Shown: piece after piece, positions 4,531 through 46,436 of the stretch
Layout of the letters: every line of letters starts with the position of its first letter
Position numbering within the stretch: the stretch's first letter is position 1
From: Mustelus asterias
Lineage: Eukaryota
DNA length: 64,000 nt
Assembly: GCF_964213995.1 (NCBI RefSeq)
Contig: NW_027590159.1
Coordinates: forward strand, 124,001-188,000
Reading direction: 5' to 3'
Notes under the pieces: model-generated
The model's database searches: none
Seen by the model: the letters and a program-made list of their open reading frames with translations, nothing else
What the model was told of the DNA's origin: nothing
Position numbers and translations under genes: made by a program

Positions 4531-5679
4531 CACACGCTCTCGCTCTCNNNNNNNNNNNNNNNNNNNNNNNNNNNNNNNNNNNNNNNNNNNNNNNNNNNNN
4601 NNNNNNNNNNNNNNNNNNNNNNNNNNNNNNNNNNNNNNNNNNNNNNNNNNNNNNNNNNNNNNNNNNNNNNNNNNNNNNNNNNNNNNNNNNNNNNNNNNNN
4701 NNNNNNNNNNNNNNNNNNNNNNNNNNNNNNNNNNNNNNNNNNNNNNNNNNNNNNNNNNNNNNNNNNNNNNNNNNNNNNNNNNNNNNNNNNNNNNNNNNNN
4801 NNNNNNNNNNNNNNNTCGAAAACTCTCTCTCTCACACACACACACTCTCTCACACACACACACACTCTCTCTCTCGAANNNNNNNNNNNNNNNNNNNNNN
4901 NNNNNNNNNNNNNNNNNNNNNNNNNNNNNNNNNNNNNNNNNNNNNNNNNNNNNNNNNNNNNNNNNNNNNNNNNNNNNNNNNNNNNNNNNNNNNNNNNNNN
5001 NNNNNNNNNNNNNNNNNNNNNNNNNNNNNNNNNNNNNNNNNNNNNNNNNNNNNNNNNNNNNNNNNNNNNNNNNNNNNNNNNNNNNNNNNNNNNNNNNNNN
5101 NNNNNNNNNNNNNNNNNNNNNNNNNNNNNNNNNNNNNNNNNNNNNNNNNNNNNNNNNACACACTCTCTCACACACAGCCTGTCTCTCACACACAGCCTGT
5201 CTCTCACACACACACTCTTTCTCACACACACACTCTCTCTAATACACTCNNNNNNNNNNNNNNNNNNNNNNNNNNNNNNNNNNNNNNNNNNNNNNNNNNN
5301 NNNNNNNNNNNNNNNNNNNNNNNNNNNNNNNNNNNNNNNNNNNNNNNNNNNNNNNNNNNNNNNNNNNNNNNNNNNNNNNNNNNNNNNNNNNNNNNNNNNN
5401 NNNNNNNNNNNAAACATATACTCTCTCACACACACACACTCTCACGCACACGCTCTCTCTCTCGCACACACACTCTCTCTCGCACACACTCTCTCTCTCT
5501 CGCACACACTCTCTCTCTCGCACACACTCTCTCTCTCGCACACACTCTCTCTCTCGCACACTCTCTCTCTCGCACACACTCTCTCTCTCACACACACTCT
5601 CTCTCTCACACACACTCTCTCACACATACACACACTCTCTCTCACACACACACCCACAGAATGATGGGGCAAAATGTAG

Positions 5680-6830
5680 AGGAAGATTTGAGCTGTATCT
5701 AACCCCGTGCTGTACCTGTCCTGGGTGTGTTTGATGTGCACAATGTGGAGGCAGCTTTTCCTTTAATCTAGCACCATGCTGTGTCTGTCATTGGATTATA
5801 TGATGGGGACAGTGTATAGGGAGCTTCACTCTGTATCTAAACCTGTGCTGTACCTGTCCTGGGAGTGTTTGATGGGGATAGTGTAGAGGGAGCTTTACTC
5901 TGTATCTAACCCTGTGCTGTATATGTCCTGGGAGTGTTTGATGGGGGACAGTGTAGAGGGAGCTTCACTCTGTATCTAAACACGTGCTGTACCTGTCCTG
6001 GGTGTGTTTGATGGGGGACAGTGTAGAGGGAGCTTTGCTCTGTATCTAACCCCGTGCTGTATCTCTCCTGGAAGTGTTTTATGGGGACTGTGGAGAGGGA
6101 GCTTTACTCTGTATCGAACCCCGTGCTGTACCTGTCCTGGGAGTGTTTGATGGGGGACAGTATTGAACATAGAACATAGAACATAGAACATTACAGCGCA
6201 GAACAGGCCCTTCGGCCCACGATGTTGCACCGACCCGTAAAAAAAAAAACACTGTGACCCTCCAACCTAAACCAATTTCTTTTCGTCCATGAATCTATCT
6301 ACGGCTCTCTTAAACGCCCCCAAACTAGGCGCATTTACAACTGATGCTGGCAGGGCATTCCAATCCCTCACCACTCTCTGGGTAAAGAACCCACCCCTGA
6401 CATCGGAGATATAGATATAGAGGGAGCTTTACTCTGTATCTAACCCCGTGCTGTACCTGTCCTGGGAGTGTTTGATGGGGACAGTGTATAGGGAGCTTCA
6501 CTCTATCTAAACACGTGCTGAACCTGTCCTGGGTGTGTTTGATGGGGGACAGTGTAGAGGGAGTTTTGCTCTGTATCTAACCCCATGCTGTATCTCTCCT
6601 GGAAGTGTTTTATGGGGATAGTGGAGAGGGAGCTTTACTCTGTATCGAACCCCGTGCTGTCCCTGTCCTGCGAGTGTTTGATGGAGACAGTGTCGAGGGA
6701 CCTTTACTCTGTATTGAACCCCGTGCTGTATTTTTCCTGGGAGTGTTTAATGGGGACAGTGTCCAGGGAGCTATACTCTGTACCTAACCCTGTGCTGTAC
6801 CTGTCCTGGGAGTGTTTGATGGGGACAGGA
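5680..6830. repeat. ~69-bp satellite block with a CR1 3'-end insertion at ~6166-6405
   Basis: Same unit, interrupted by a (aacatag)n-tailed LINE end on the minus strand. Confidence 0.9.
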
Positions 6831-7665
6831 CTTGGGGGACATTGGATTTTAGACAATGTTTAGGGTTTTAGACTTTTCGGAGTGAAATTCAGGAACACTT
6901 TGCCACACCAGGTGTGATATTAGTTTGGAACTACCTTCTATAATTCACAGTTGATGCTCAGTCGCTTATTAATGTTCAAACCTGAAGTTGATAGATGATA
7001 TTTTACACACAGGAGAAGCAATTTAAAATCAATGGGTCAATGTTAAAATAGTTGCAGGAACAGAGAGACCTGGGCTTTCAGTTCATTTTTACATCTTAAA
7101 GATTCAACCTGGGGCTCAGAATCTGTCAGTTGAATCTACTTTTCCTGTCCCGAAAACGTGTCAACAATTGTGTTGGGGAATGTGACAAAAGGTGACATTC
7201 CTGCATCCTGCACAGTGGGGTTGGGAGGTTGTTTGAAAGGAGATTCAGAAAGTGTCAATTAGATTGTGTCTCTTTGAAGAAGTTGACTATTTCACAGGAG
7301 ATGCCTTGAGATAAAGGAAAGTTTTACCAATGTCTGCGTAACTTTCAAAGTCTCCAGACGCATGAAGGGGGCAGAGATTTTGTAATATTCAGAGCAGGAG
7401 ATGGGGGACAATCACAGAATTGAAGATGTGAGGCCATCTCTTGTTTCTGAATGTCAATCTGTAGCTTTTAAACTTTAGTCCTGGGCTAATCATTCCAAGT
7501 TTGCAATCCCACACTTTGCTGTTGTGGATTTTGAGTTGTAAATTTTCTGAAATTGATTCTGTAATAAAAATCCCTGCAGGATGCAATGATTCCCATTCTG
7601 TCTGCTGCTGCCAAGCCCCAGTTTGTGTCTCAGTTTCACTATTTATCAGCCATTTAAGATCCAAG

Positions 7666-7872
7666 AGTCATAGAATTCCTACACTGCAGAATGAGGCCAT
7701 TCAGCCCAACAAGCCTGCCCCGACAATAATCCCACCCAGGCCCGAATCCCCCTGACACTAAGGGGCAATTTAGCAAACGTGCAAACTCCACACAGACAGT
7801 CACTCGAGGCGGGGAATCGAACCCAGGTCCCTGGCGCTGTGAGTCAGCAGTGCTAACCACTGTGCCACCATG
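7666..7872 (-). mobile_element. tRNA-derived SINE (HE1-like)
   Basis: Reverse strand ggtggcacagtggttagcactgctg..gggttcgattcc A/B boxes, tgtgtggagtttgcac core, CR1-like 3' tail. Confidence 0.8.
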
Positions 7873-8219
7873 TCACCCGGTGATGAGACAGAACGTTTGC
7901 CAAAGTGCACAGAAATAGGCAGCATTGTCAGCATTTTAGCTGAAAGCTTCAAATGACAAAGGGATCTTAATAGTAGAGTCACAGAATCCCTGCAGTGCAG
8001 AAGGAGACCATTCAGCCCATCGAGTCTGTACTGACTCTCTGACACAGTATCTTACCAAGGCCCTTGACCCAGCCCTATCCCCGTAACCCCACACATTTAC
8101 CTTAATCCACCGAACCAACACAGCTTTGGACAGGAAACGGCAATTTACTGTGTCCAATCCACAAATTTGGAAAATACTGGGATGGATTGAGAAATGGTTT
8201 CCGGGCAGAAAACAGAGCT

Positions 8220-10140
8220 CAGATACAAATGGGCCCTTTGGCCCAACTTTTCCCTGCCACCCAGTTTTTACCATTAAGCTCGTATCAAATGCCTTGCGTT
8301 TGGCCCAAATCCCTCCATACCAATCTTACCAGAATAACTGTCTAAATGCTTTTTAAAACATAAAATTGTGTCCGCTTCTACTACGACCTCTGGCAGCTTG
8401 TTCCAATCCCTCACCATAAGACCATAAGACATAGGAGCGGAAGTAAGGCCATTCGGCCCATCGAGTCCACTCCACCATTCAATCATGGTTGATTTCAACT
8501 CCATTTACCCGCTCTCTCCCCATAGCCCTTAATTCCTCGAGAAATCAAGAATTTATCAATTTCTGTCTTGAAGACGCTCAACGTCTCGGCCTCCACAGCC
8601 CTCTGTGGCAATGAATTCCACAGACCTACCACTCTCTGGCTGAAGAAATTTCTCCTCATCTCTGTTCTAAAGTGACTCCCTTTTATTCTAAGGCTGTGCC
8701 CCCGCGTCCTAGTCTCCCCTGCTAATGGAAACAACTTCCCTACGTCCATCCTATCTAAGCCGTTCATTATCTTGTAAGTTTCTATTAGATCTCCCCTCAA
8801 CCTCCTAAACTCCAATGAATATAATCCCACGATCCTCAGACGTTCATCGTATGTCAGGCCTACCATTCCCGGGACCACCCTATGTGTGAAAAGAATTGCC
8901 CTCTGGACCCGCTCCCCTCTCACCTTAAACCTATGTCTTCTAGTTTTAGACTCCCCTCCCTTTTGGAAAAGATGTTGACGAGCTTATCACAGAACAAAGA
9001 GAATTACAGCACAGGAACAGGCCCTTCGGCCCTCCAAGCCTGCACCAACCATGCTGCCCGACTGAACTAAAACCCCCTACCCTTCCGGGGACCATATCCC
9101 TCTATTCCCATCCTATTCATGTATTTGTCCAGACGTTCCGTAAAACTCACTATCGTATCTGCTTCCACTACCTCCCCCGGCAGCGAGTTCCAGGCACCCA
9201 CCACCCTCTGTGTAAAAAAACTTGCCTTGTACATCTCCTTTAAACCTTGCCCCTCACACCTTAAACCTATGCCCCCTAGATTTTGAATCTTCCACCCTGG
9301 GAAAAAGCTTCTGACTATCCACTCTGCCCATGCCCCTCATAATCTTGTAGAATTCTATCAGGTCATCCTTCAACCTCCGTCGTTCCAGTGAGAACAAAGC
9401 AAGTTTCTCCAATCTCTCCTCAGAGCTAATGCCCTCCATACCAGGCAACATCCTGGTAAATCTTTTCTGAACCCTCTCCAAATTCTCCACATCTTTCTGG
9501 TAGTGTGTCGATCAGAATTGAACACTATATTCCAAGTGCGGCCTAACTAAGGTTCTATAAAGCTGCTGTATCCATGCCCTCATTATTTTAGAGACCTCTA
9601 GAAGAACACCACTAAGCCAACTCAAGGGAAAAAAGGTCCCAGAGCATCCAGCCTCTCATTATAACTCAAACCATCAGGACCCCATAGCATCCCAGTCATT
9701 CTTTTCTGCACACTTTCTCGCTTAATAATCTCCTTTTTATAAGGGTGACCAGAACTATACACAGCATTCCAAGTGTGGTCTTACCAATGTCTTGTACAAC
9801 TCCAACAAGACGTCCCAACACCTCTATTCCATGTTCTGACCAATGAAACCCAGCATGTGGAATGCCTTCTTCACCACACTATCCACCTGTGACTCCACTT
9901 TCAAGGAGCTATCAATCTGTACCCCGAGATCCCTTTGTTCTGTAACTCTCACCAACACCCTACCATTAACTGAGTAAGTCCTGTGTTGGTTCGATCCACC
10001 AAAATGTATCAGCTTGCATTTATCTAAATTAAACTCCATCTGCCATTCAACAGCCCACTGGCCCAATTGATCAAGATCCCATTGCAACCCTAGATAACCT
10101 TCTTCACTGTCCACTATGCCACAAATCTTGGTGTCAACTG
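8220..10140 (-). mobile_element. Nested CR1-type LINE 3' fragments
   Basis: ORFs 8495-8923, 9254-9490 and 9824-10153 with LFSLE.RRLRGDLIE.YKIM, FFSQRVV..WN and WQMEFN motifs; short-repeat tails. Confidence 0.9.
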
Positions 10141-11299
10141 CTACTCTCTGCATTGCTCCCTCTCCCTATCTCTCTCTTACTCTGCATCGCTCCATCTCTC
10201 TCTCTTCCTCTCTCTCTCTCTCTCCCTCTCTATCCCTCTCATCCACCATGTTGTTTATCGTTAAGGGGTCTAATCACGGAGAATCTAAACACTCTTTCTG
10301 TTTCTGTCTTGGCAGAATTAGCAACATGAGTGGATATTTCAAGACTGGATTCACACAATACAGACAGAAGGCTGGTGAGCTCAGTACACGTGGTACCTGA
10401 ATGTTACAATAAGATAGAATCTGTATTCAGACAACTGTCACCCCACAGGGTCCAAACTTCACCGTGTTAATTTGATTTGATTTGATTGATTTGTATTGGG
10501 ATGCAGTGAAAAGTATTGTTTCTTGTGCGCTATACAGACAAAACATTCTGTACATAGAATACACAGGGAGAAGGAGAGGAAAGGGTGCAGAATATAGTGT
10601 TGCAGTTACTGATAGGGTGTGGAGNNNNNNNNNNNNNNNNNNNNNNNNNNNNNNNNNNNNNNNNNNNNNNNNNNNNNNNNNNNNNNNNNNNNNNNNNNNN
10701 NNNNNNNNNNNNNNNNNNNNNNNNNNNNNNNNNNNNNNNNNNNNNNNNNNNNNNNNNNNNNNNNNNNNNNNNNNNNNNNNNNNNNNNNNNNNNCACATAC
10801 TCTCACACTCTCAGNNNNNNNNNNNNNNNNNNNNNNNNNNNNNNNNNNNNNNNNNNNNNNNNNNNNNNNNNNNNNNNNNNNNNNNNNNNNNNNNNNNNNN
10901 NNNNNNNNNNNNNNNNNNNNNNNNNNNNNNNNNNNNNNNNNNNNNNNNNNNNNNNNNNNNNNNNNNNNNNNNNNNNNNNNNNNNNNNNNNNNNNNNNNNN
11001 NNNNNNNNNNNNNNNNNNNNNNNNNNNNNNNNNNNNNNNNNNNNNNNNNNNNNNNNNNNNNNNNNNNNNNNNNNNNNNNNNNNNNNNNNNNNNNNNNNNN
11101 NNNNNNNNNNNNNNNNNNNNNNNNNNNNNNNNNNNNNNNNNNNNNNNNNNNNNNNNNNNNNNNNNNNNNNNNNNNNNNNNNNNNNNNNNNNNNNNNNNNN
11201 NNNCCATCACACATTGTCTCTCTTTCTCACACTCTCCCTCTCACACACACACACAAACTCATATTCTCTCTCACACACACACATTCTCTCTCTCACACA

Positions 11300-14200
11300 C
11301 ACAATGTGGAGGGAGATTTACGCTGTATCTCACCCGATGCTGTACCTGTCCTGGGTGTGTTTGATGTGTGGCAGCTTTTCCCTGTATCTATCCCCATGCT
11401 GTATCTGTCATTGGAATATTTGATCGTCATGATGTGGAGATTTGATAGTTATTTGATAGTGACAGTGTAGAGGGAGCTTTATCTGTATCTAACCCCGTGG
11501 TGTGCCTGTCCTGGGGATGTTTGATGGGAACAGTGTAGAGGGAGGTTTACTCTGTATCTAACCCCGTGCTGCACCTGTCCTGTGAGTGTTTGATGGGGAC
11601 AGTGTAGAGAGAGCTTTACTCTGTATCTAACCCCGTGCTGTATCTGTCCTGGGTGTGTTTGATGGGGACAGTGTAGAGAGAGCTTTACTCTGTATCTAAC
11701 CCCGTGCTGTATCTGTCCTGGGTGTGTTGGATGGGGACAGTGTAGAGGGAGCTTTACTCTGTATCGAACTCTGTGCTGTGTCTGTCCTGGGAGTGTTTAA
11801 TGGGAACAGTGTAGAGGGAGCTTTACTCTGTATCGAACTCTGTGCTGTACCTGTACCTTTCCTGGGAGTGTTTGATGGGAACAGTGTCGAGGGAGCATTA
11901 CTTTGCATCTAATCCCGTGTTTCAGTTACTGATAGACTGTAGAGGAAGATCAGGTCACACACACGCTCTCCTTACACACTCTCAGATACACACACACACA
12001 CACACACGCTCTCTCTGTCTCTCACACACACATACACTATCTCTAACGCACTCTCTCACTCACACACATGCTCTTTCTGTCTGTCACACACACTTTATCT
12101 CTCACACACATTCTCTCTCACACACACTTTCACGCTCACACACTCTCACCCGTGTATTCTCTCCAACTGTCACACTCTCACACACATGCGCTCACTCTCT
12201 CACACATACACTCTCTCTCAAACATGTACTCTCTCACACAGAAACTCTCACTCACACACACACTCTCTCTCACACACACACTCTCTCTCACACACACACT
12301 CTCTCTCACACACACTCTCTCTTACACACACACGCTCTCTCTCTCGCACACACTGTCTCTCGCACACGCTCTCTCTCTCGCACACTCTCTCGCACACACT
12401 CTCTCTCTCGCACACACTCTCTCTCTCACACACACACTCTCTCTCACACACGCACTCTCTCTCACGCACACTCTCTCTCTCACGCACACACTCTCTCTCT
12501 CACACACACACTCTCTCTCTCACAGACACACACTCACTCTCATGCACACGCTCTCTCTCGCACACACTCTCTCTCGCACACACTCTCTCGCACACACTCT
12601 CTCTCTCGCACANNNNNNNNNNNNNNNNNNNNNNNNNNNNNNNNNNNNNNNNNNNNNNNNNNNNNNNNNNNNNNNNNNNNNNNNNNNNNNNNNNNNNNNN
12701 NNNNNNNNNNNNNNNNNNNNNNNNNNNNNNNNNNNNNNNNNNNNNNNNNNNNNNNNNNNNNNNNNNNNNNNNNNNNNNNNNNNNNNGGAAGATTTGAGCG
12801 TATCTAACCCCGTGCTGTACCTGTCCTGGGTGTGTTTGATGTGCACAATGTGGAGGCAGCTTTTCCTTTAATCTAGCACCATGCTGTATCTGTCATTGGA
12901 TTATTTGATGGGGACAGTGTATAGGGAGCTTCTCTCAGTATCTAACCCCGTGCTGTACCTGTCCTGGGAGTGTTTGATGGGGACAGTGTCGAGGGAGCTT
13001 CACTCTGTATCTAAACCCGTGCTGTTCATGTCCTGGGAGTGTTTGATGGGGATAGTGTTGAGGGAGCTTTATCTGTATCTAACCCTGTGCTGTACCTGTC
13101 CTGGGAGTGTTTGATGGGGGACAGTGAAGTGGGAGCTTTACTCTATATCTAACCCCGTGCTGCATCTGTCATGGGTGTGTTTGATGGTGACAGTGTAGAG
13201 GGAGCTTTACTCTGTATCTAATCCCGTGCTGGACCTGTCCTGGGAGTGTTTGATGGGGATAGTGTCGAGGGAGCTTTACTCTGTATCTAACCCCATGCTG
13301 TACCTGTCCTGGGAGTGTTTGATGGGGATAGTGTCGAGGGAGCTTTACTTTATATCTAACCACTTGCTGTATCTGTCCTGGGAGTGTTTGATGGGGACAG
13401 TGAAGAGGGAGCTTTACTCTGTATCTAACCCCGTGCTGTACCTGTCCTTGGTTTGTCTGATGGGGATATTGTAGAGAGAGCTTTACTCCATATCTAACCC
13501 ACTGCTGTATCTGTTGTTCGAGTGTTTGATGGGGATAGTGGAGAGGGAGCTTTACTCTGTATCTAACCCATGCTGTCCCTGCCCTGGGAGTGTTTGATGG
13601 GGATAGTGGAGAGGGAGTTTTACTCTGTATCTAACCCATGCTGTCCCTGTCCTGGGAGTGTTTGATGGGGACAGAATCGAGGGAGCCTTTCTCTGTATCT
13701 AAACCAGTGCTGTACCTGTCCTGGGCGAGTTTGTTGGGGACAGTGCAGAGGGAGCTTTACTCTGTATCTAACCCTGTGCTGTATCTGTCCTTGGTTTGTT
13801 TGATGGGGACAGTGTAGAGGGAGTTTTACTCTATATTTAACCCCAGGCTGTATCTGTTCTGGGACTGTTTGATGGGGACAGTGTACAGTGAGCTTTACTC
13901 TGTATCTAACCCCGTGCTGTACCTGTCCTGGGTGAGTTTGATGTGCACAATGTGGAGGCAGCTTTTCCTTTAATCTAGCACCATGCTGTATCTGTCATTG
14001 GATCATTTGATAGTGACAGTCTATAGGGAGCTTCACTCTGTATCTAAACCCGTGCTGTTCATGTCCTGGGAGTGTTTGATGGGGATAGTTTTGAGGGAGC
14101 TTTATCTGTATCTAACCCTGTGCTGTACCTGTCCTGGGAGTGTTTGATGGGGGACAGTGAAGTGGGAGCTTTACTCTATATCTAACCCCGTGCTGTATCT

Positions 14201-14987
14201 GTCATGGGTGTGTTTGATGGGGACAGTGTAGAGGGAGCTTTACTCTGTATCTAATCCCGTGCTGGACCTGTCCTGTGAGTGTTTGATGGAGACAGTGTCG
14301 AGGGAGCTTTGCTCTGTATCTTACCCTGTGCTGTCCCTGTCCTGCGAGTGTTTGTTGGGGACAGTGTAGAGGGAGCTTTACTCTGTATCGAACCCTGTGC
14401 TGTATCTGTCCTGCGAGTGTTTGATGGAGACAGTGTGGAGGGACCTTTACTCTGTATTGAACCCCGTGCTGTATTTGTCCTGCGAGTGTTTAATGGGGAC
14501 AGTGTCGAGGGAGCTTTACTCTGTACCTAACCCTGTGCTGTACCTGTCCTGGGAGTGTTTGATGGGGACAGGATTTGGGGGACATTGGATTTTAGACAAT
14601 GTTTAGGGTTTTAGACTTTTTGGAGTGAAATTCAGGAACACTTTGCCACACCAGGTGTGATATTAGTTTGGAACTACCTTCTATAATTCACAGTTGATGC
14701 TCAGTCGCTTATTAATGTTCAAACCTAAAGTTGATAGATGGTATTTTACATCAGGAGAAGCAATTTAATATCAATGGGTCCCTGTCCTGCGAGTGTTTGT
14801 TGGGGACAGTGTAGAGGGAGCTTTACTCTGTATCGAACCCTGTGCTGTATCTGTCCTGCGAGTGTTTGATGGAGACAGTGTGGAGGGACCTTTACTCTGT
14901 ATTGAACCCCGTGCTGTATTTGTCCTGCGAGTGTTTAATGGGGACAGTGTCGAGGGAGCTTTACTCTGTACCTAACCCTGTGCTGTA
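11300..14987. repeat. ~69-bp satellite blocks (11300-11915, 12790-14570, 14780-14987) with a TC/AC array between
   Basis: Same satellite unit, expanded relative to copy 1. Confidence 0.95.
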
Positions 14988-22330: not shown

Positions 22331-23380
22331 GTATTTATATATCCAAATGTGCTATGTTAACAAAATGGGCAGTTACTAACCGAAACATAAAGCATCATGT
22401 GATTTAGCTGACTTGACCATATTCCTATAGTTATTCAGTCATTAAAGACACAACCATGGAGCATTAAACTTGCCGAGCAGGGCCCCTTGTATCAACACAC
22501 AGGCAGCTGCTTTGTGAGACTGCGAGCAGCACAGACAAGTCAGAGATAAGAATGTCCTGAGAAGAGAGATTCATTGTGAAGGCTCAGGGACGGTTGATAA
22601 GATGTAAGAATTCTATGATTCTCATGAACATTCTTTCCCCTCTCATTCCCAAAAGCTGTAAATCTCCATCCCACACACTCTCCCTCCATTCTCACTCTGC
22701 TGTATCTAATATTCACCCTCCCAATTCTCCTGAAGGTGCTGATTGAGGCTGATTGACAGATCCATGCTCACTGCTTCCTGTCCACGACTCAGAAATCATA
22801 ATAGGAGCTGCAGTTGGCCATTCAGCCCATTGAACTGCCTCAACCATTCATTGAGAATTGGCTGATCTACCGCAGCATCATTTCCCACGCTATCCACCAG
22901 ATAGAGAGAGAATAGAGCCAATGTTCCGAGTCTGGAGAGAGGAAAGAATGTTCCATAGAAACTAGAATTGTCTGTTCTGAATTTCTATCCTGTACTGACA
23001 CTGATGATTTTTATAAACTTGTTTTACAGGATATTGAAAGAGGAATCACAGGCTGAAATCTCAAACGTCACATCTAGATCTGACAGAGTCATATTCCTTG
23101 GGACCTGAATATCATCGGCCTTTGTATCTTGAAGGAGAAATTGTTGTCTGGTCTGTCAGTTTGAAAAGATTTCAAATGTCAGTGTGACTGGAAAAGCACC
23201 AACACACTGTCACACTCGAGTGAGAGTGTTCCAGTTCACAGACTCAAGAGCTTTAACCAGTTACACAGCCTGAATAAATATCACACCATTCACAGCGGGG
23301 AGAGACTGTACCCGTGTTCTGTGTGTGGACGAGGCTTCAACTGATTGTCCACCCAAGACAGAGGCAAGGACACCTGCACC

Positions 23381-23887
23381 ATGGAGAAACCATGGAAATG
23401 TGCGGACTGTGGGAAGGGATACGGAGCCCCTTCAGAGCTGGAAGTTCATCGGCGCAGCCACACTGGGGAGAAGCCATTCACCTGCTCTCAGTGTGAGAAG
23501 GGATTCAGTCAGTTATCCAACCTGCAGAGACACCAGCGAGTTCACACTGGGGAGAGACTGTTCACCTGCTCTCAGTGTGGGAAGGGATTCACTAATTTAT
23601 CCACCCTGCGTAGACACCAGCGAGTTCACACTGGGGAGAGGCCGTTCACCTGCTCTCAGTGTGGGAAGGGGTTCAGTCAATTATCTGACCTGCAGATACA
23701 CCAGCGAGTTCACACTGGGGAGAGGCCGTTCACCTGCTCTCAGTGTGGGAAGGGATTCAAAGTTTCATCCCGGCTGCTGAGACACCAGCGAGTTCACACT
23801 GGGGAGAGACCGTTCAGCTGCTCTGTGTGTGAGAAGATATTCAGTCTTTCATCCCATCTGTTGAGACACCAAAAAGTTCACGAGTGA
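23381..23887 (+). CDS. C2H2 (Kruppel-type) zinc-finger protein, 6 fingers, 168 aa, no KRAB/SCAN domain seen
   Basis: Intact [16 protein letters not shown]...HQKVHE with HTGE(K/R)PF linkers; exon acceptor ttttacag|g at 23030. Confidence 0.9.
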
Positions 23888-25199: not shown

Positions 25200-25647
25200 G
25201 CCAACTTCCCCTTTGTGACGTCACAGTGGAGCCATCCTTGAATCAGCCAATAGGAATCACTCTGCTCCGCGGTGACGTCTCCGGGTTCCAGTGCGCAGGC
25301 CCGGGCGCGCGGACCCGGGAGCCCCGCCCCCACCCATTGTTCCCCTCCCCCTACACCACATCGAGCCAAGGTTTCCAGGCAACCAGCTGGCGGCTCCGGC
25401 CAGAGCGAGAAGCTGCTCGGTGATCTCCCCCTCCCCTCGGCCCAGGACTGCGCATGTCCAAGGGAGGGGGAAGCTGAGAATTGCAGGGCAGATCCCACCC
25501 CCTGACCTTCTGAGGTGTTGGTTAATAGGAAGAGTTGGAGGACCGGAAGGACTCTGGTCCTCCAGCTGATCAGAGCGCGGGCTTGTGACAATGCAGATTG
25601 GGCTTCAGACAGACTGAAACCTCCTCCTGTCTCCAACCTCTGTGAGT
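25200..25647 (+). promoter_or_regulatory. CpG-rich promoter and probable non-coding first exon of ZNF-gene type
   Basis: TGACGTCA at ~25216, CCAAT at ~25247, GC box, tgcgcatg at ~25449; ends in a tct|gtgagt donor that is repeated at 29533. No downstream ZNF coding exon in the window. Confidence 0.5.
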
Positions 25648-27514
25648 GGGAAAGATTGGATTGTCCAGCCAGTCCACCATATTGGCCGTTCGCTTTGCGT
25701 GTTGGCCAGTATAGTGTGCTCCAGGCAGGGGGCGGGCAGAGGATAAGGAGTTCAAGGCGGGCTTAATGCGCGCCTTGCGGTGAGCTTTTGGAAATGTGGC
25801 CGCTGGGAGGAACGCCTTGGTCGGCGTGAAGTTTCTGTTTCAAGTGCTTGGGTTCGTGACTTGTGCAAGAACTTTTTGTTTCGGCTGGGGCTTGTTGAAT
25901 GCTGCTCTCGCTGGGATTCCTGTGCCTTGAAAGGCGTGGCCCGGGTGGATGCAGTCTCGGAAGACCCAAGCCAGGGAGGAGCCATTTGGGAACAATGGTT
26001 TCGGAAGGTTCAGCCGCGGAAGGTGTGACCCCAGACGGTGCAGCCCCAGTGGGTGTGATTTTGGAAGTTCTGGCCCGGAGTGGTGGACTTTGGAGGACTG
26101 TAGTTGAGCGTTGTCGACTTCGGACGGTGGAATGTTGATGGGCGAAGCTCTGGAAGGCGATGCCTCCGAAATGTTTCACAATTGTATGGTTGTTCGTGGA
26201 TTGTTTGTTATTGTAATATGTGGTTTTCATGTTATGATAGTTGGTGGTTTGTTCCGGCCCCCGTCTATTTTCTTGCGTTATTTGTGGCCTGGGGGGCATC
26301 CCCCCCTTGACAACGTCACCCCCGGGGGGTGTGACATCCACTTGGGGAAAGTTCTGGGTGGTGAAGCCCCGGACATAGTAACACCAGAGGGATTTTTATT
26401 CTCCGGGAGAAAAATTGGGAAGGCAGGCCCGAACTGAGTACCCTGGAGAGACTCTCCCACCGCCCCGGCTGAAATTCCGGAAGGCAGTCCGGATTGAGTA
26501 GGCGGGGTGGTTTCCCCATTTCCCCCCTCCGGCTGAACATCCGTAAGGTGTAACCCCCGGATATGAGTACCACTGGAGGGTTGCATCCCCCGGCAGGTGG
26601 ACAAATCCAGGGGATGGTGCCCTTCTGCTTCAGTGTTTATTTTTTTTTGTTGTGTACAGTTGTAGTGTTGTTAATGTTTGTAGATTTGTAGATTATGATT
26701 TGTAAATGGAGGTGTATTTTGAGGGCAATGCCCTGGAAAACTGTAATTGACGATGAACCCTTCCGAAATGGAAGGTAGTAATTGATAAATGGATGGTGTT
26801 AGCCATCGGTAATGTATTTTTCATGGATTGTTTGTTATTGTAATATGTGGTTATCATGTTATGGTAGTTGGTGGTTTGTTCTGGCCCCCGTCTATTTTCT
26901 TGCGTTATTTGTGGCCTGGGGGGCATCCCCCCCTGGATAAAGTCACCCCCGGGGGGTGTGACATCCACTTGGGGAAAGTTCTGGGTGGTGAAGCCCCGGA
27001 CATAGTAACACCAGAGGGATTTTTATTCTCCGGGAGAAAAATTGGGAAGGCAGGCCCGAACTGAGTACCCTGGAGAGACTCTCCCACCGCCCCGGCTGAA
27101 ATTCCGGAAGGGATTCCGGATTGAGTAGGCGGGGTGGTTTCCCCCATTTCCCCCCTCCGGCTGAACATCCGTAAGGTGTAACCCCCGGATATGAGTACCA
27201 CTGGAGGGTTGCATCCCCCGGCAGGTGGACAAACCCAGGGGACGGTGCCCTTATGCTTCAGTGTTTATTTTTTGTTGTGTACAGTTGTAGTGTTGTGTTA
27301 ATGTTTGTAGATTTGTAGATTATGATTTGTAAATGGAGGTGTATTTTGAGGGCAATGCCCTGGAAAACTGTAATTGATGATGAACCCTTCCGAAATGGAA
27401 GGTAGTAATTGATAAATGGATGGCGTTAGCCATTGGTAATGTATTTTTTCACATTTGTTCTTTGTGTATTTGTAATTGTTTTGTATTAACGTATTTGTAA
27501 TAAACAAAAAGAAA
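25648..27514 (+). mobile_element. 5'-truncated polyA-ended element (possibly L1/Tx1 clade) with a tandemly duplicated ~627-bp structured 3' region
   Basis: AATAAA at 27499 followed by caaaaagaaa; repeats at ~26197-26824 and ~26824-27453; degraded upstream frame only weakly like a Tx1 ORF2 C-terminus. Confidence 0.5.
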
Positions 27515-27531
27515 CCAACATCAGAGAGGTT

Positions 27532-27604
27532 GTTTCTGTAGTGAAGTGGTTGTCACATTTGCCAGACACGCGAAAGGTCCCCGGGTCAGAACCGGGCAGG
27601 AATG
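27532..27604 (+). pseudogene. tRNA-Val pseudogene (anticodon reads GAC)
   Basis: Aligns to vertebrate tRNA-Val (GTTTCCGTAGTGTAGTGG..GCGAAAGGTCCCCGG) with B-box and acceptor-stem mutations. Confidence 0.85.
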
Positions 27605-27628
27605 TTAATTTGGTCATTCCAGCATCTG

Positions 27629-29524
27629 AAAGTGGGAAGGGGGAGGAAGGTGAGCTGTTGCCTGCCTGCCTGCTGTCATTGGCCTCGGGGTGGGCGTAGC
27701 ACTCCCTTGATTACTATGGAGGCATCGCCAGCGTCGCCGGTGGCAGAGCCTTCTCGGCCCACCTATGCGGGCGTGGCGGCAACCAGAGCCCCCGCCGCTC
27801 CCAAGGCCCTGCCACCTTTTTCGTTGCTCACGCGGCAGCTCGGGGTTAAGGGCTACGCCCACCCCGGCATGTCTATCGAGGCCTGTGTCAAGGCAATGGC
27901 TGGGGTTGTCGGCCCCTGAGCCATTGTCGCGGCCTCGAAGATGTACGGCCGGGCCGTATTCTTTTTGAAGGCCGAGCGGGCGGTCCACCTCGCCCTGGAG
28001 AGGGGGCTCACGGTGGGCGGGACGTTCCTGGCGGTGGACCCATTGGAGGCCACCGCCCATAAGATCATCATCTCGAAAGTCCCGCCCTTTCAACCCGGTG
28101 AGCTCCTCCTCCCCCACATCCATCCACTGGGGGAGGTCAGGTCCGGGGTGGTGCCGATCCCGCTTGACCTTTGGGACCCCTCCCCCCGCCATGTCTACTC
28201 CTTTTTGTCCATTTCTCCATTTGTCTGCCTGACCCGGGAGGAGGTCCTGGAGGGAGGGTTTAGTATCCGTTCCACCCAGCCGATTACAACCCGGAGTTCT
28301 TTTTCAGTATGCCGGGGGACTGGGGCGACACCCCAATGTTCGTGTCCCCGTGCGGCGGTGGCGAGGAAATGGTCCACTCGTCCTCTCCGTCCCGGCCTTG
28401 GACGCTGGACATCCCTGACCTTAATCCGGAGGTTGTACCAGACCTGGGGGGTGTCCAAGCGTCTGGGGCGGAGCGGGGGACTGAGTCGCCGCTGCACGCG
28501 GGCCTGCAAACCGGGGAAGGTGAGCCCGGGGGGAACCCCTCCTCCACCGATCCTGGGGGTGGGATCGGGGAGGGGTTGGGGCGAGTTGGTGACTCCGTGC
28601 CGCCCGCCGTACGTCCTGCGGCAGGGGACTCGGAGTCGAGGGGCGACCGCCCTGAGGAGGTCAGCGGCTCGGTGGAGGGCACGGGGACACTTTTGGAGTC
28701 TGCCCAGAGCGAGGCGGGGTCTCCCTCGTGCCTCCCACCGAGTCATCCCTCCTGCGGATTCACTGTCTGGAACACGGTCGCCTCGCGACGCTGCTCCCTA
28801 ACCCCCACCCCACCCCACCCCACCCCCCACACCCCCCCCAAACCCCCCCACACCACCCGCTCCCCAAACCCCTCCCACCCACCCCAAACCCCTCCCACCC
28901 CACCCCCACACCCCCACCCCCACACCCACACCCACACCCCCACCCCACAACCATAGGATTCACTGGTTCACGGGCTCCGAAGACTGCCCTTTCTGTGGCC
29001 TTGTGGAGTCCGTGGACCATGTCTATGTTTTGTGTCTTAGGCTGCACTCCCTTTTTGTTTTCCTAAAGAACCTTTTGTTGATGTTTTGCTTGCACTTCAG
29101 TCCCTCGCTCCTGATCTACGGACACCTGGTGCGGAGAGGGAAGGGGAGGGATGGCGACCTCCTCGTGAACCTGCTCCTGGGCCTGGTGAAACGCGCCATT
29201 TACCGGTCCAGGCAGCGGGCGATCGAGGGGGCCGTCCATCCTGACTGTCTGCCCCTCTACCACGGCTTTGTTCGCGGCCAGGTGTCCCTGGAGAGGGAGC
29301 ATGCGGTGTCCACGGGCGAGGTTGACGCTTTCCGCGCCCGTTGGGCACCGCAGGGGTTGGGGTGCGTTATCGACCCTAATAATCACATTTTAATTTGTTG
29401 TCTTTAAGTTTGCTTTGAACTTTGATTTCTGTTCGGGCTGTTCCCCCTCCTTTTGGGGAGCTGCCCCTTTTACTTTGTCCTGACTTAATTTGGCTTTGTT
29501 TATTTGGTTTGACCTAAAAAGAGG
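27629..29524 (+). mobile_element. Tx1-clade non-LTR retrotransposon, internally deleted (ORF1 N-terminus plus ORF2 C-terminus)
   Basis: ORF1 from ATG 27716 (LTRQLGVK..SIEACV..IVAASKMYGRAVFFL..ISKVPPF..RHVYSF) with an in-frame stop at 27917; ORF2 end CPFCGLVESVDHVYVLC (CCHC) ~28985-29407; T-rich UTR and taaaaagag tail. Confidence 0.85.
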
Positions 29525-29869
29525 CCAACATCTGTGAGTAAAAGACTTTCTTTTCTCTCCCTTTCCATTTCTTTTCTCATTCTGGGGGAAATTGGGGATT
29601 TGCAGCAACTGAAGGGAAAGGAAGTGAATCCAGGGAGGCTGCAGACTCTGAAAAGGTTGGCCCAGGTCTGTCTGTCTCTCTTTTTTAAAGACATTGACAT
29701 CCTTTGCTCCCTCAGTTTGACTCATTTATTTGTCTGGATGAAGCATAGTCTCTTTGCTAATGTTCACAATTAAAGGGATGTTTTCTCCAGGAGATGGCTG
29801 ACATTTAAGGGCACACTAAATTAATATTGTGCACATTCATGACCTGGACACGTCAGACTTATGATCAAT

Positions 29870-33187: not shown

Positions 33188-33844
33188 AGCAATACTTCAA
33201 AAACTTCAAAACTTAACTCCGTGTTGAAGGCTGGAAGGAGAATGTGACAGTGGGTAATTGGCAGTGTGCACATTCCTGTAATCAGTGACTGGGAGGATCA
33301 GGAAGATGAGATATCTGGATCTCTTTATACTGTCATCTCTAAACTCCATCTCCTCTCAGTGCCGTGTGTCTTACATTCCCTGCCCCTGCTTTCCAGGTAT
33401 AGCTCGGGCTCACTACTTGTCTCTGTCTGCATTAAGCAGCTAATTGACCCTGGGAGCTGGACGGTCAGAGGAAGCTGGAGAACAGAAACAGGAAGAGAAG
33501 CGACATGATAGTGTTTCGTAAATGACTTGTATCACTTGCTCTCTGTGATGAATGCCTGCCGTGTGTTACCTTGTAAGTTTCACAGGAGCCACAGTGATGG
33601 AGTTGGTGGGTTTTGGAAATTGAAAGTGTCACATGGCACCTTGCGGGACTATTTTACCTCACTGTCGATTTCATGTTCCAACTAACAGAATTCGCTGGTT
33701 TCATTGGCTGAAGCAGTCACTTGTGTTCGATCTAAACATTAAACTTTGAAGGAGAAACATGCTCTGGTGAATAAAATGTCCAACATAAAATAAAAGACAG
33801 GAGGTCCATGTATAAATTAGTGTTTTAAATAATTCGCGTTAACT

Positions 33845-33916
33845 TCCCTGATGGTCTAGTGGTTAGGATTCGGCGCTCTCACCACCGCGGCCAGGATTCG
33901 ATTCCCGGTCAGGGGA
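33845..33916 (+). tRNA. tRNA-Glu(CTC), several stem mismatches (possibly pseudogene)
   Basis: tccctgatggtctagtggttaggattcggcgctctcaccaccgcggccaggattcgattcccggtcagggga. Confidence 0.75.
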
Positions 33917-34444
33917 TGTCGATTTATTGCTATACCCTGTACAACAATCCCGCGTTACTTCCGGGTCAGCACCAGTTCTGTCGCAATCAGTGTGAGACAT
34001 TTCCTCTTTTGTGTCTGAATTGGAAATGTCACATGTCAAGAATTTTAAAAAACCGATGGACTGGAAAGCGCTGACGATAGAGATGGTGATGCGGGGTAAA
34101 ATTTGGCTGACAATCGGGTGGATTTCATTGTTTCCACTGATACAAATATCGTGCAGATCAGGGTCCAAATCTCGGGCTCAGTGACAAGAAAATCTTTAAC
34201 TGAATTAAACAGCAAACTTTCTGACCTCCAGTGAAATGGTGGCAGTTTTCACTCAGAAACCAGGAACGGTGAGTTTAACAGCGCAGGATGGAGAAGGACT
34301 CAGTTTGAATGGTGAGACTGCGGGTGGAATGGCGAGCTGGAGTTCAACCAGAAATGCAGCAAAGTTTAAAAACAATCGCGCTCAACGTGGGGCTGGAACC
34401 CACGGTCCATTAACGGTGATAAATTCATGTTGTTCAGCAGAGTT

Positions 34445-37423: not shown

Positions 37424-37836
37424 TCTCATCTTCCTGATTTTCCCGGATACTTATGACAGGAATGTGCACAGTGCCAATTATCGACATTCATGTACTCCTT
37501 CCTGTCTGTTAAGACATTAAATTGTTCATATTTTCACACTGGCTCCAGTGTGACGAAAGCAGAGCTGTGATATGCTGATGTTGTTCAGCATTTTTAACAC
37601 AACAGGTTTGTAAAGGTTCGATGCTAACATTGCTCTTTCAACGTGGTGAGCTACAGTGAAATATAATGCAGTTGAAGGTAGCTTACTCATTTTTGCAGGA
37701 GGAATCAGCAAGGGCAATGAAAATATGAATTGCTGTGGGTAATTGATGGAATTGTGCAATGGGACTGATATTTCGCCCTGCTGTTCAAATTGGCACAGGT
37801 ACTGAGCGACCATCTTCAGGCTGCTCCCGTGTGCTG

Positions 37837-37908
37837 GGTTCCGTGGTGTAATGGTGAGCACTCTGGACTCTGAATCCAGCGATCCGAGTTCAAATCTCGG
37901 CGGAACCT
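37837..37908 (+). tRNA. tRNA-Gln(CTG), intact
   Basis: Full cloverleaf: GGTTCCG/CGGAACC acceptor, CTGGA-CTCTGAA-TCCAG anticodon arm, GTTCAAATC T-loop. Confidence 0.95.
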
Positions 37909-38242
37909 TGCTTTAATTTGCAGATGATGGATATGCTGAAGGGTGTTTAATTTTCTCACCAAGTCCGAATCGAGAGAACAATTTGTCAGCCAGTTCAGCT
38001 GCTGTTAGAATGCACATTGCTGAACCTTTGGCGCGAGATGCCTGCAACATCAGTGATTTTCATCTTTTCGCCACTCTTTAACTCCTCTGTTGAAAGATAG
38101 AAGCTGTTGGTGTTGCACAATAACAATTCGATTGGAGTCTGGCAATTATTGAGCAAAATGTGTGTGTGTGCGTGTGAGTGCGTGTGAGAGAGAAAGAGAG
38201 TCGGTGCGTGTGTGTGTTTTGGAGAAAAGACTGCTGTCGGTC

Positions 38243-41350: not shown

Positions 41351-43762
41351 AACAAAGCGGGATGGAAAAAGGTTCAGTTTGAACGGCGACACTGCTGGAA
41401 CTTAACCCAGTAAAAACAGAGCACAACGTGGGACTCAAATGCACGACCCTGAGCGAGACGGACACATATCAGAACATATAATAAAATGCATGGAGACAAA
41501 TATGGCTTTTCCATCTGGTATCTCAGTTCATTCCAATTAGAAAGTTGACGATTAATCAACCGGCAGAATCTTTGAGGTGAGAATGCATTCCTCTCAATGA
41601 TCAACAACTGCATTCACATCTTGCACTTCTTAGCTGGATCTCCTTCCAAACATTGCAAACTCCTCTTACATCTTTCGCCTTAATATTTTTGATCTAAATG
41701 CTCAAACCAGGTGCGGAAACAGCATCTCAGTATGCCCGGAGTCAAACTATCGCCCCATTTTCAGACTTTTCCATCTGACCACCTCTCAGCCCAAAATCAT
41801 CCCACTGAGTCTCTCCTCCCCGCACAACCGCCTCATCACAGGATTAAATCCAGTGAACGTTGGTTAAACATAGACAGCGAGAGAATAGAGGGTGCAAAGA
41901 GCAAAAGAGGGAACAGTGATCGATGCACAGACAGAGAGACGGAAAAGTGAAAGAGTCAGAGACAGGTCTCCAGCGACAAAAAGAGACAGATAGGGAAAGA
42001 GAGTGAAGCAATCACCCGCAACTCAATATACAGAAAACAACTGTCGGAACCCACAAGCATGGGGTCCTCTGAATGGGTGAATAAGGATTAAATGAATGTC
42101 TGCAAGCATTGTCTGGATCCTCTGTGAGTGTGTTGTGCGAACAGAATTTGATTTGATTCATTGTCACATGTATTAACATACAGTGAAAAGTATTGTTTCT
42201 TGCGCGTTATACAGACAAAACATACAATTCATGCAGCAGGAAACGAGAGAGTGCAGAACGTAGTGTTACAGTCATAGCGAGGGTGTAGATAAAGATCAAC
42301 TTAATGCAAGGTAAGTCCATTCAAAAGTCTGACAGCAGCAGGGAAGAAGCTGTTCTTGAGTCGGTTGGTACGTGACCTCAGACTTTTTGTGTCTTTTCCG
42401 GAAGGAGGCTCTCAAACTATACACGTGAGCTCTTGTTCTTGATTGCCCCACAAGAAGAAACTTTTGGTCTACCTTTTCTTTATCAATCCATTTAGAATTT
42501 TATATATGTCTATCAGATCCCCTCCTCATCCTTCTAAACGTTTGCATTTAGTGGGAACATTTCACCTCACTATCAATTCCATGACTCAGCGAATTCAAAC
42601 CCTGTTGTCATTGGCTTAAGGAGGCAATTATGTTCCATCCAAACAGGACATTTTGCAGGAGAAACGTGTCACAAGTTAAAAAGATCTGAGGGGAAAATAA
42701 TGAGCAAACGGACATATGTGAAGTCAGTTTGAAAAACACAGTTCACCGGTGCCGTGGTATCCAGTCGCTTGTGTTCAGCACTCCCCTTGTGATGTCTTGT
42801 TTCAATTCCCGCTTTGGAAAAGAAGAATATTTGATCTCAGCAAACCATTAATAATGATCTGACTTACTCTCTGATCGAAAACAGATCTACTAGAATCAGC
42901 CGATTGAGGTTTGCAAGTTTATATGAGAGCTGGAAATTTCATATGTGCAACAGTTCAAGAACAAACACAGAAAGAGAAGGACAGTGATAGGGTGCATCCT
43001 ACGAACGATTGAGACGTTGTTGCAAGGTAAAATCTGTCTGGTAATTGGTCAGATTTTACCGTTTACGTTGACACTGAATAATGAAACTTTTTCCCGTACT
43101 CTGCATTGAAAAGCATTTGGAAATATTTCTGTCCAGTTTCGAACCGTCGGAAGCGAAAGTGATAATTGCACTGGAGTGTTTGTTATATGTTGTCATTGGC
43201 TGAACACATCACTGGCGCAGAGACAGAAGGCGCCATCTTGCAGGAGAAAGCTGTTTGTGGCGAAAGTGGCGTGAAAATTAAAGTAACAAAAGCAGCGTGG
43301 ATAAATTAAATTCTAAAACACGCTGTAAGCTGCTGGCCTGGTGGTCAGAGTTTGACTCTTTCCCTGCTGTTTAGATTACTGGTCTGGAATTGGAGATGTA
43401 TTGCTCTCATCCAAACTGTGAAAACAAATGTGAGTTATTGCCTGGATGAAGATGAAAGATATAATTTCGCCTCGTGCCCTGAAGTGCAGACCCTGAGCAA
43501 ATTCAACAGGAGGTTCTCTTGTCATTTCTGGCAGGAAATTGGGAAGAGACGAACTTAAGGACAGTTTAAATGATGCCGACCCTTCACTGCAGCTCATTGT
43601 GTTTCTGACGTGGATGATTTCTGTTTGTTGCGCAATTTAGGTTTACCTGAATCAGTGAAGGAGCAGGCTCATGCTTCCTGATGGCCTTTCCAAACTCCAT
43701 TGCTTTTAATGAATTTCAGTAACATTATCATTAAATAACATGATCGCGATGCATTTCAACGT

Positions 43763-43844
43763 GGTAGCGTGGCCGAGCGGTCTAAGGCGCTGGGTTAAGG
43801 CTCCAGTCTCTGCGGAGGCGTGGGTTCGAATCCCACCGCTGCCA
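43763..43844 (+). tRNA. tRNA-Leu(AAG), near-intact
   Basis: 82-nt match to vertebrate Leu-AAG with a long variable arm; one G-U pair at the anticodon stem base. Confidence 0.93.
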
Positions 43845-44029
43845 GAATAGATTTGAGTTTTGGTCTAACAGCTCAGATTGAGTGCAGGAGTGTGTGCGGT
43901 GTCGTTTTCGTCATGAACAACGAGCAGGGACATTACCAACTTAAAACGTTGTTGGGGTAAAGCAGCGTGTGTTCAAGTGGCTCCTTTCGCGAGCACACAC
44001 AGGGTGAATTTCTGACTGCGGAGTCAAAC

Positions 44030-45250: not shown

Positions 45251-45371
45251 TTGACTGAAGGAGTCATTCGTGTTCGATCTAAACATGAGGTTTTTTTTCC
45301 CCCCAAACCTTTCTCGAGTATTTGAAAAACGCTGAAATGTATCGGTCAGATTAAAAAGTTTGCTTGCATCT

Positions 45372-45443
45372 TCCCTGGTGGTCTAGTGGTTAGGATTTGG
45401 CGCTTTCACCGCCGCGGCCCGGGTTCAATTCCCGGTCAGGGAA
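45372..45443 (+). tRNA. tRNA-Glu(TTC), near-intact
   Basis: tccctggtggtctagtggttaggatttggcgctttcaccgccgcggcccgggttcaattcccggtcagggaa. Confidence 0.9.
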
Positions 45444-46436
45444 TGTCGATTTTACAGCTGCCGACCAGCACATGATTCAGGAGGGGCTGAAATTACCTCC
45501 TGATCGAAAACAGGAGTGATCATTGTGCCAGTTTGAACTACCTGAAGAAACAAAATAAACCCATTTGCACAATCCCGTCAATTGTCCCCGGCAACTTTTC
45601 ATTACATTCCCCTTGCTGCTTCCTCCTGTCAAAATAAATAATAATGTATTCTGCTCCACTAAATTTCACTGTAGCTCACCGCATTCAGAGATCATTCCTA
45701 ACCTCTGCCTCTTCTGTAGCTTCTTGTGGGAAATCTGCTGAACAACATTAGAGATTTGTATCTCATTGTCCATCATTACTGTCTCCATTGCTTCATTCCA
45801 GGTCACTGTCGCTACAGACATAGTCACACAGTCCTTCTACCTTCTGCAGTAAATGATATTCTCTTCCTTTGCTTTCAGATACTTTCACCTCCAGAAACTG
45901 ATTACATGCTAAGTAAAATGTTCTGTTTGGTTGACAGTTTATCATCAATCCCGGGCCTTGGAAGGACTGACTCTGAACGACTTGACCATCCGGCCTCCAC
46001 CATCATCAGATAAATGTTGCCTGATCCTTCACTCCCTGATTCATTGAATCATCCTCCCTTGCTTTCTATCACAGACCATCCCGTTTGTTCTTTTCACAGG
46101 CTGATTCATGACGTTGCCATCAGAAAATGTTGGAAATACTCGGCAGTTAATGATTCGTGGCAAATGCGTGATTATTTCTCAAAGCTGAATTACTCTGAAA
46201 TTGAAAACATTTGGAAATGTTTCTGTAAAGATGAAATACTGCTGATGCTGGTACCTGAAACAAAAAAAAATACTGGAAAATCTCAGCAGGTCTGGCAGCA
46301 ACTGTGAAGAGAGAACAGAGCCAGTGTGTCGATTCAGGAAATCTGATGAAGGATCATCCAGATTTGAAACGTTGGTTTCCCCACAGATGCCTTCAGTGCT
46401 CCTGAGAATTCCAGCATTTTCTATTCCTGTTAAATA

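Follow-up and report, generated by a model that had tools for sequence, protein, structure and literature searches.

SINEU-1, SINEU-2 and SINEU-3 of crocodilians are non-autonomous retroposons that have their target in common with Tx1 families (Tx1-Mar), and the accessible part of the account of them describes elements that are thought to be transcribed from flanking sequence and that gain new 5′ ends (PMC4494074). Hominid SVA is a composite element, Pol II-type and poly(A)-ended, that travels as a passenger of an L1-group LINE, and the available portions of two sources attribute to it a GC-rich repeat, a domain proposed to aid the capture of ORF2p and the ability to capture host promoters (PMC3287187; bioRxiv 10.1101/2024.05.03.592410). 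The available text of the second of these sources treats as an open question the route by which long Pol II-type passengers, SVA among them, obtain LINE proteins, and leaves ribosome docking by SVA, the closest analogue of the element described here, unsettled (bioRxiv 10.1101/2024.05.03.592410).

The element that we describe, found in a window of 64,000 nucleotides of the shark Mustelus asterias, is of this already known type (SINEU, SVA), and the features just listed have observed or proposed counterparts in it. Unlike SINEU, as presented in the accessible part of PMC4494074, it has no U1/U2 head and is 1.3–2.5 kb long, its targets are an LTR-like repeat, a Myb/SANT-encoding repeat and a zinc-finger exon 1, and it carries a predicted loop E array, which does not figure in that part of the account. 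Unlike SVA, as the available text of the same two sources presents it, it contains no Alu or HERV parts, is target-specific, carries a bulged-G array and has a Tx1-type partner. Its motifs resemble loop E of 5S rRNA and of potato spindle tuber viroid, as described in the accessible parts of PMC6633198 and PMC6164485, in that AGUA lies opposite GAA with a G at the next level at most sites, but there are four or five per domain and up to eight per element rather than one; longer spacers separate the motif from its lower helix than in 5S loop E, and derivation from 5S rRNA was not detectable (no Rfam match). As a putative multi-stem, cis-acting RNA in an unspliced retroelement transcript, the domain is also like the MusD MTE, the MLV PTE, RTE and CTE, although those belong to LTR elements in the available part of PMC5767303 and show no sequence or Rfam similarity to it. 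The features of the locus are as follows.

25633–25647, plus strand: upstream copy of the 15-bp target, with a donor-like GTGAGT at its end (5′ junction rows)
25648–27514, plus strand: whole retroposon, subfamily A (ends from 30 copies)
25648–25857, plus strand: subfamily-A-specific head with CCAAT-, GC- and TATA-like boxes (read off the sequence)
25899–26138, plus strand: degenerate 15-nt repeat region (period 15/30 autocorrelation in an older copy)
26294–26622, plus strand: predicted structured domain, unit 1 (MFE, pair counts, consensus fold of five majority rows)
26921–27250, plus strand: predicted structured domain, unit 2 (duplicate at +627/+628)
27499–27514, plus strand: AATAAA and short A-rich tail
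27515–27528, plus strand: downstream target copy, altered
27529–29524, plus strand: internally deleted Tx1-type LINE with a tRNA-Val-like head (same target as the retroposon; ARAGORN 27531–27605)
29525–29539: third target copy, behind the Tx1-type LINE

The carrier of the domain is a non-autonomous retroposon of 1.87 kb. A search of the 3.68-Gb genome with the domain returned 478 candidates, the best 40 of which were scored and were 97–100% identical to the query, and the ends of the element were set from 30 genomic loci. At these loci a head is followed by at least one 627-bp unit, AATAAA and a short A-rich tail; genomic copies and junction spacings indicate that one-unit and two-unit elements are both present. 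The duplication at +627 that an earlier note on this DNA had reported was borne out by comparison of the units, which differ by 16 substitutions and 3 small indels. Between 25648 and 27514 we found no reverse transcriptase or endonuclease gene, no conserved protein gene and no tRNA (ARAGORN). The earlier note had placed the domain in a retroelement-like 3′ region: the retroelement is real, and the domain lies in the body of a non-autonomous retroposon, 650–1600 nt inside the element and away from its ends, rather than in the 3′ UTR of a coding LINE. Older copies can be aligned only from about 25858 onward, and the subfamily-A head, to judge from its sequence, was probably captured from a host promoter. 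We rejected classification as a strict SINE, including 5S-derived SINE3, since there is no tRNA, 7SL or 5S head (ARAGORN; Rfam at E ≤ 10) and no LINE-shared 3′ tail. The earlier note could assign the domain to no known family, and we found no Rfam match: scans with Rfam 15 of the region at E ≤ 10 gave sub-threshold chance matches only, and those of five older loci at E ≤ 1 likewise gave no family match.

In all 38 rows that cover a 5′ junction (the loci overlap, and so do the rows) the 15-bp target precedes the element, in one of them with a single base altered; it recurs behind the tail and is also found between tandem copies. Genome-wide, exact junctions of target and 5′ end number 164, against none for the control. 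At one locus (L023) the target is followed by sequence that continues into a stretch homologous to the C2H2 exon at 23002–23884, which suggests that the target is the end of exon 1 of a zinc-finger-type gene, at a donor-like site; a second donor-like motif lies inside the subfamily-A head. The LINE directly behind the retroposon has an intact relative (L068) that encodes an ORF1 of 700 aa, which includes a CCHC knuckle, and an ORF2 of 1296 aa with endonuclease and reverse transcriptase, and that ends at the same target. A Gag-like ORF1 with a CCHC knuckle, an ORF2 combining AP endonuclease and reverse transcriptase, and a target preference are thus the traits on which we take the partner to be a Tx1 element, a name given from this anatomy and from general knowledge of the group. 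BLASTN matched the element in none of ten Tx1 loci of 10 kb each, so that neither tail nor domain is common to both, and among the loci examined, the best 40 candidates per search, no autonomous element with the domain was seen. From the shared targets we infer that the retroposon is mobilised in trans by Tx1-type proteins.

We note that in one branch of Tx1-type LINEs (27529–27605; L070, L072) the tRNA-Val-like head stands directly behind the target, and that in L066–L069 related, more diverged tRNA-like heads are followed by a CCTG-rich microsatellite. At several loci (L015, L016, L006, L029, L003) a 15–20-nt stub of a Tx1 3′ end lies between two target copies behind the passenger; such stubs at passenger 3′ junctions are very short 5′-truncated insertions at the same site.

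Older subfamilies, at 70–88% identity, retain the motifs of the domain, add a fifth and occupy other targets. A motif suggested by sequencing runs of other organisms led to the first four diverged copies, and later to more; contigs from eight such runs cover most of the domain at 80–99% in six cases, part of it in one and none of it in one, and a motif from one other organism's run is absent from the M. asterias genome. A hairpin pattern had no matches in viral contigs and none in metagenome contigs. A genome pattern of threefold TGAGTA (15,326 hits against 10,374 for the control) was swamped by satellites, and its 30 loci were excluded. Copies of subfamily C, 71–82% identical to the window copy, have a single domain and a different head, and several of them sit in a repeat that encodes a Myb/SANT-like domain (Pfam PF13873, E 1e-5), which we take to be Harbinger-like; the target duplication is 12 bp in two copies and about 28 bp in another. 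Subfamily D, at about 70% to the window copy, sits in a short LTR-like repeat, about 130 bp of which it duplicates, including CCAAT- and TATA-like boxes (L170–L182, e.g. L179 4026–6129), so that each insertion may keep a promoter in front. Part of this duplicated LTR-like sequence persists as the head of subfamily C, and Tx1-type 3′ ends adjoin the D target site in L173, L179, L181 and L213. No donor-like motif was seen at the junction in the C and D targets. Divergence suggests that the targets were occupied in the order LTR-like repeat (D), Myb/SANT-encoding repeat (C) and zinc-finger exon 1 (A); through both replacements of head and target the domain was retained.

The motifs themselves had been described as AGTA at 26377, 26437, 26497 and 26566, each opposite a GAA in a hairpin stem. 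All four positions are correct, with counterparts in unit 2 at 27004, 27064, 27124 and 27194, and four AGTA within the 346-nt domain occurred in 1 of 5000 dinucleotide shuffles. When GAA and AGUA were required to lie in a helix with an outer duplex of ≤ −7 and an inner hairpin of ≤ −3 kcal/mol, four of four sites passed on the plus strand and none on the minus strand, whereas among 2000 dinucleotide shuffles 82 had one such site, 2 had two and none had three or more; a cruder descriptor recovered three of the four sites, one of them through the wrong GAA. Each AGUA can face a GAA between two helices, with the qualification that the first hairpin passes only by way of GAA 26347, as GAA 26363 encloses no hairpin with 26377. 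To judge conservation we aligned 39 representatives of less than 93% identity drawn from 239 full-length domain matches. Consistent with the conservation that the earlier note had called for, AGUA is intact in 32, 33, 33 and 34 of the 39 rows at the four sites and GAA in 33, 25 and 30 at three of them; at the first site GAG (19/39) is found beside GAA (17/39), and at 26471–26473 nine rows have AAA. Across the 39 copies the A and U of the motifs are more uniform than other A and U (0.95 vs 0.86 and 0.96 vs 0.83, respectively); the motif G is no more uniform than other G (0.87 vs 0.88).

At most sites the sequence is G-AGUA facing GAA-A, and in the available part of PMC6633198 the standard motif also has G at this level. 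The S-turn geometry by which that source defines the bulged-G class, with a G-U-A triple and a tHH A-A pair, is a prediction for these sites. With regard to membership of the bulged-G class, AGUA lies opposite GAA at four of four sites in the window, the two strands are unpaired and facing in the consensus fold, and a lower helix is present at every site. Closure at the sheared end is canonical in the second arm of the fold below and at 26347/26566, an A·C in the first arm of the window copy (A-U in older-A and B) and imperfect at 26377/26535. An ancestral fifth AGUA faces GAAAA within the enclosing stem and has decayed in the window copy; the youngest subfamilies are without it, and B is without a second motif too. 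In subfamily D a separate rod bears the motif in nested order, its 5′ strand carrying one or two AGUA and its 3′ strand GAAA. On these models we consider it likely that loop E motifs form in the RNA.

The predicted fold is a rod with two arms, made up of the following parts.

26294–26298/26618–26622, 26305–26309/26607–26611 and 26326–26335/26580–26589, plus strand: enclosing rod, leading to a three-way junction
26314–26317, plus strand: decayed fifth motif (AGUA in 24/39 rows; partner strand 26600–26602)
26337–26391, plus strand: 5′ strand of the crosswise rod (hairpin 1), with GAA 26347, GAA 26363 of a 3×3 loop and AGUA 26377
26400–26449, plus strand: arm 1 (hairpin 2), GAA 26409–26411 opposite G-AGUA 26436–26440 (AGUA 33/39, GAA 33/39)
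26457–26510, plus strand: arm 2 (hairpin 3), GAA 26471–26473 opposite G-AGUA 26496–26500 (AGUA 33/39, GAA 25/39)
26525–26577, plus strand: 3′ strand of the crosswise rod (hairpin 4), with GAA 26535, GUA 26550 and AGUA 26566

The note had read the array as two sets of four hairpins. Hairpins 2 and 3 stand, whereas the energies and the consensus fold make it more probable that hairpin 1 pairs with hairpin 4 than that either folds on itself, and "two sets of two hairpins and a rod" probably fits better. RNAalifold on the five subfamily majority rows keeps hairpins 2 and 3 with open GAA/AGUA and pairs hairpin 1 with hairpin 4, in the order GAA 26347/AGUA 26566, helix, GAA/GUA 3×3 loop, AGUA 26377/GAA 26535, 8-bp helix and three-way junction. 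The crosswise register has 32 pairs against 23 for self-pairing hairpins, all of them canonical in the older-A and C majority rows and 29 of them in the window copy. The "loops" of hairpins 1 and 4 are constant in length (34/39 and 32/39 rows), presumably because the crosswise register pairs them, and in variant B the rewritten hairpin-1 strand pairs at −23.3 kcal/mol with the hairpin-4 strand against −10.2 with its own. With the motifs held open, the crosswise register of the window copy is better by 5.5 kcal/mol; with the motifs free neither register has the advantage, and in the unconstrained MFE hairpin 4 is self-paired. Copy by copy, the crosswise register has the lower energy in the single A copy, in 9 of 10 older-A, 11 of 16 C and 4 of 9 D copies, and in none of the 3 B copies, which are misaligned here. 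Covariation does not separate the two registers, both of which keep four motifs, and in these models the RNA may switch between them. Arm 2 alone folds at z −4.4.

Of the long-range helices proposed to enclose the set, GGGCA/UGCCC is kept in 95.7% of cells over the 39 copies, whereas tccacttg/caggtgga is not supported: it would cross the 10-bp helix 26326–26335/26580–26589, which is better preserved, and is complementary only in the youngest subfamily. The claim that copy differences in hairpin 3 fall in the terminal loop holds (26485, 26487). We also observed that 26363–26365/26550–26552 forms a conserved GAA/GUA 3×3 loop in the crosswise fold (GAA/GGA in some subfamilies), which we take to resemble a bacterial-type loop E submotif.

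Evidence on whether the fold has been selected is divided. Majority rows of older-A and C are canonical at 78 of 78 modelled pairs, in a model derived from the same rows that were later used for scoring; at 11 of the 78 the two rows differ without any pair being lost, the change being one-sided in 10 cases and two-sided in 1. The window copy breaks 4 of the 78. Under the four-hairpin model 89.1% of cells pair over the 39 copies, above 500 of 500 shuffles and far above slid controls. The covariation that the earlier note had asked about proved weak: two-sided change was seen at 18 pairs where shuffles gave 15.8, with 135 of 500 shuffles reaching as high a count, and the crosswise helices show no two-sided covariation. 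Folding better than shuffled controls, a second expectation, was found for the window domain (z −2.9 on the plus strand, −0.65 on the minus strand) and not for single old copies (mean z −0.4), in which the plus strand has the lower z in 21 of 39; for the majority rows of C and D z is −0.8 and +0.3, respectively, and with all 39 rows as input RNAalifold retains only 27 pairs, a number of them in different registers. The old copies are 6–20% away from their own majority rows. The ViennaRNA energy model credits no loop E pairs, and this together with the decay of old copies weakens the negative folding results without removing them. We conclude from these models that the domain is probably a real, selected RNA domain of a Tx1 passenger. 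The central proposal of the earlier note, a multivalent bulged-G element of no known family, accordingly survives in part, being supported by the shuffles, motif retention, the additional motifs and Rfam, and not by its four-hairpin topology or by covariation.

As to what such a domain might do, we favour, with a probability of about 0.42, the reading that it is a multivalent protein-docking scaffold that helps passenger RNA to reach Tx1 proteins; the domain was chosen for this role as the only part of the element with conserved predicted structure. A passenger with neither a Pol III head nor a shared tail would need an upstream promoter, nuclear exit, stability and access to new ORF2 protein. 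In the mechanism we envisage, Pol II would transcribe the element from a promoter at the target or within the captured head, and the domain would fold as a Y-shaped RNA displaying four or five bulged-G (loop E) motifs. These would bind host proteins, allowing the passenger RNA to survive and to capture Tx1 LINE proteins, and Tx1 ORF2 would recognise a poly(A)-type 3′ end, which we infer because no 3′ tail is common to the element and the Tx1 LINE. Docking on host proteins is modelled on the use of SRP9/14 by Alu. In a model given in the available text of two sources, Alu reaches LINE ORF2p through ribosome docking (bioRxiv 10.1101/2024.05.03.592410; PMC3287187).

The lead candidates for a binder, TFIIIA or ribosomal protein L5, are put forward by analogy and are doubtful. 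The helix beside the ancestral fifth motif (CCUGG/CCAGG) is identical to the loop E-flanking helix in 5S rRNA of the same genome, and, in the accessible part of PMC6164485, the 5S rRNA region that TFIIIA binds includes helix V and loop E, and a viroid loop E is bound by L5. According to the same part, TFIIIA does not bind the viroid loop, for which the 5S loop is no substitute (PMC6164485). This indifference of TFIIIA, together with motif-to-helix spacers that are longer than in 5S rRNA, means that loop E does not name the binder. More speculative still is the idea that a multivalent mimic of the 5S helix V–loop E surface evolved in a vertebrate retroposon from a minisatellite, and that by recruiting TFIIIA or L5 it serves germ-line storage, export and ribosome docking. 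Were this true, the module, being independent of the partner, would have let the element exploit one Tx1 family after another as its target changed, and 5S mimicry would join SRP-type and tRNA-type docking as a third way of parasitising LINEs.

One alternative to the docking scaffold, which we think improbable, is that the domain is a neutral by-product: duplication of a 15-nt minisatellite, its core being CCGG, would have given units of about 60 nt, and AGUA/GAA would have been inherited unselected. Autocorrelation peaks at 15/30 nt in the upstream repeats (in an older copy) and at 60–63 nt in the domain, which has developed out of a 15-nt repeat with a self-complementary CCGG core; with such a core, hairpins come partly free. 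The weak covariation, the shuffle-level folding of old copies and the loss of motifs in the youngest subfamilies fit this reading as well. Yet the outer stems of arms 1 and 2 have diverged and each still pairs best with its own partner (−13.7 and −15.5 kcal/mol), the 11 differing older-A/C pairs all remain paired, the nested arrangement of D needs an inverted order of both strand types, and the domain outlasted the replacement of head and target. The next functional reading after docking, though an unlikely one, is that the domain serves nuclear export or protects the RNA from decay, in the manner of CTE, RTE or the MusD transport element; the structural evidence is the same as for docking. 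A passenger RNA that starts in a host exon and keeps its 5′ splice site unspliced would need its own nuclear exit; the target does end in a donor-like sequence, a second such motif lies in the head, and retroelements use multi-stem-loop transport elements (PMC5767303, available part). Set against this are the lack of Rfam similarity to transport elements, the presence of the domain in C and D at targets where no donor-like junction was seen, and the fact that none of the export factors in the accessible parts of the cited sources is linked to loop E.

The remaining alternatives fare worse. That the repeats act as DNA, with ETS-like transcription-factor sites boosting an upstream promoter, is very unlikely: GGAAG recurs throughout and the 5′ repeats of an older copy contain 3 ETS-like sites (p 0.035), but the domain has 1 (p 0.42), the 5′ repeats of the window copy have none, and changes at paired positions favour G-U on the plus strand (149 vs 98 cells). 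We regard as highly improbable a self-cleaving ribozyme that trims the passenger from a host co-transcript, as in R2; the precise 5′ end and a probable dependence on an upstream promoter (PMC4494074, accessible part) would suit it, whereas the domain occupies a stretch 650–1600 nt inside the element rather than one of its ends, and no Rfam ribozyme was found at E ≤ 10 in the region or E ≤ 1 in five older loci. Hardly credible is a short arginine-containing frame encoding a Rev-like peptide that binds the domain: although a frame of 68–79 codons with a near-homologous ATG is open in the A, C and D majority rows, its pN/pS is 1.09 (A–C) and 0.52 (C–D) with other frames as low or lower, the chance of its staying open is 0.42 and 0.46 (jointly about 0.19), and it has no Pfam match. 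We note that in the 79-codon frame within 25899–26138, for which we found no selection at the protein level, the ancestral ATG was lost and a new in-frame ATG lies one codon upstream.

In Rfam and the literature searched, with Repbase, Dfam and subscription journals outside the search, we found no paper on this element, no loop E arrays in retroposons and no account of the repeat origin or the target switching; the family may already be named in repeat libraries. For the docking scaffold that we favour, the element offers a compact candidate domain with point-mutable motifs and subfamilies spanning about 30% divergence. If the motifs form, the element would provide a naturally occurring RNA containing four to eight bulged-G motifs, for which we found no described precedent, and the domain would exemplify the birth of structured RNA from a tandem repeat; should the motifs be neutral, the element is still a new Tx1 passenger with a record of target switching across three targets.

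Elsewhere in the window, 2325–14987 holds long arrays of a 69-bp satellite interleaved with CA/CT microsatellites, and eight N runs lie within 2053–12786. Further tRNA genes, Glu, Gln, Leu and Glu (33844–33917, 37836–37909, 43762–43845 and 45371–45444), lie amid zinc-finger genes and repeats. The genome contains two 5S rRNA arrays (L190, L191), one with a spacing of about 427 bp on C5 (29.34–29.49 Mb) and one that is irregular on C1796.
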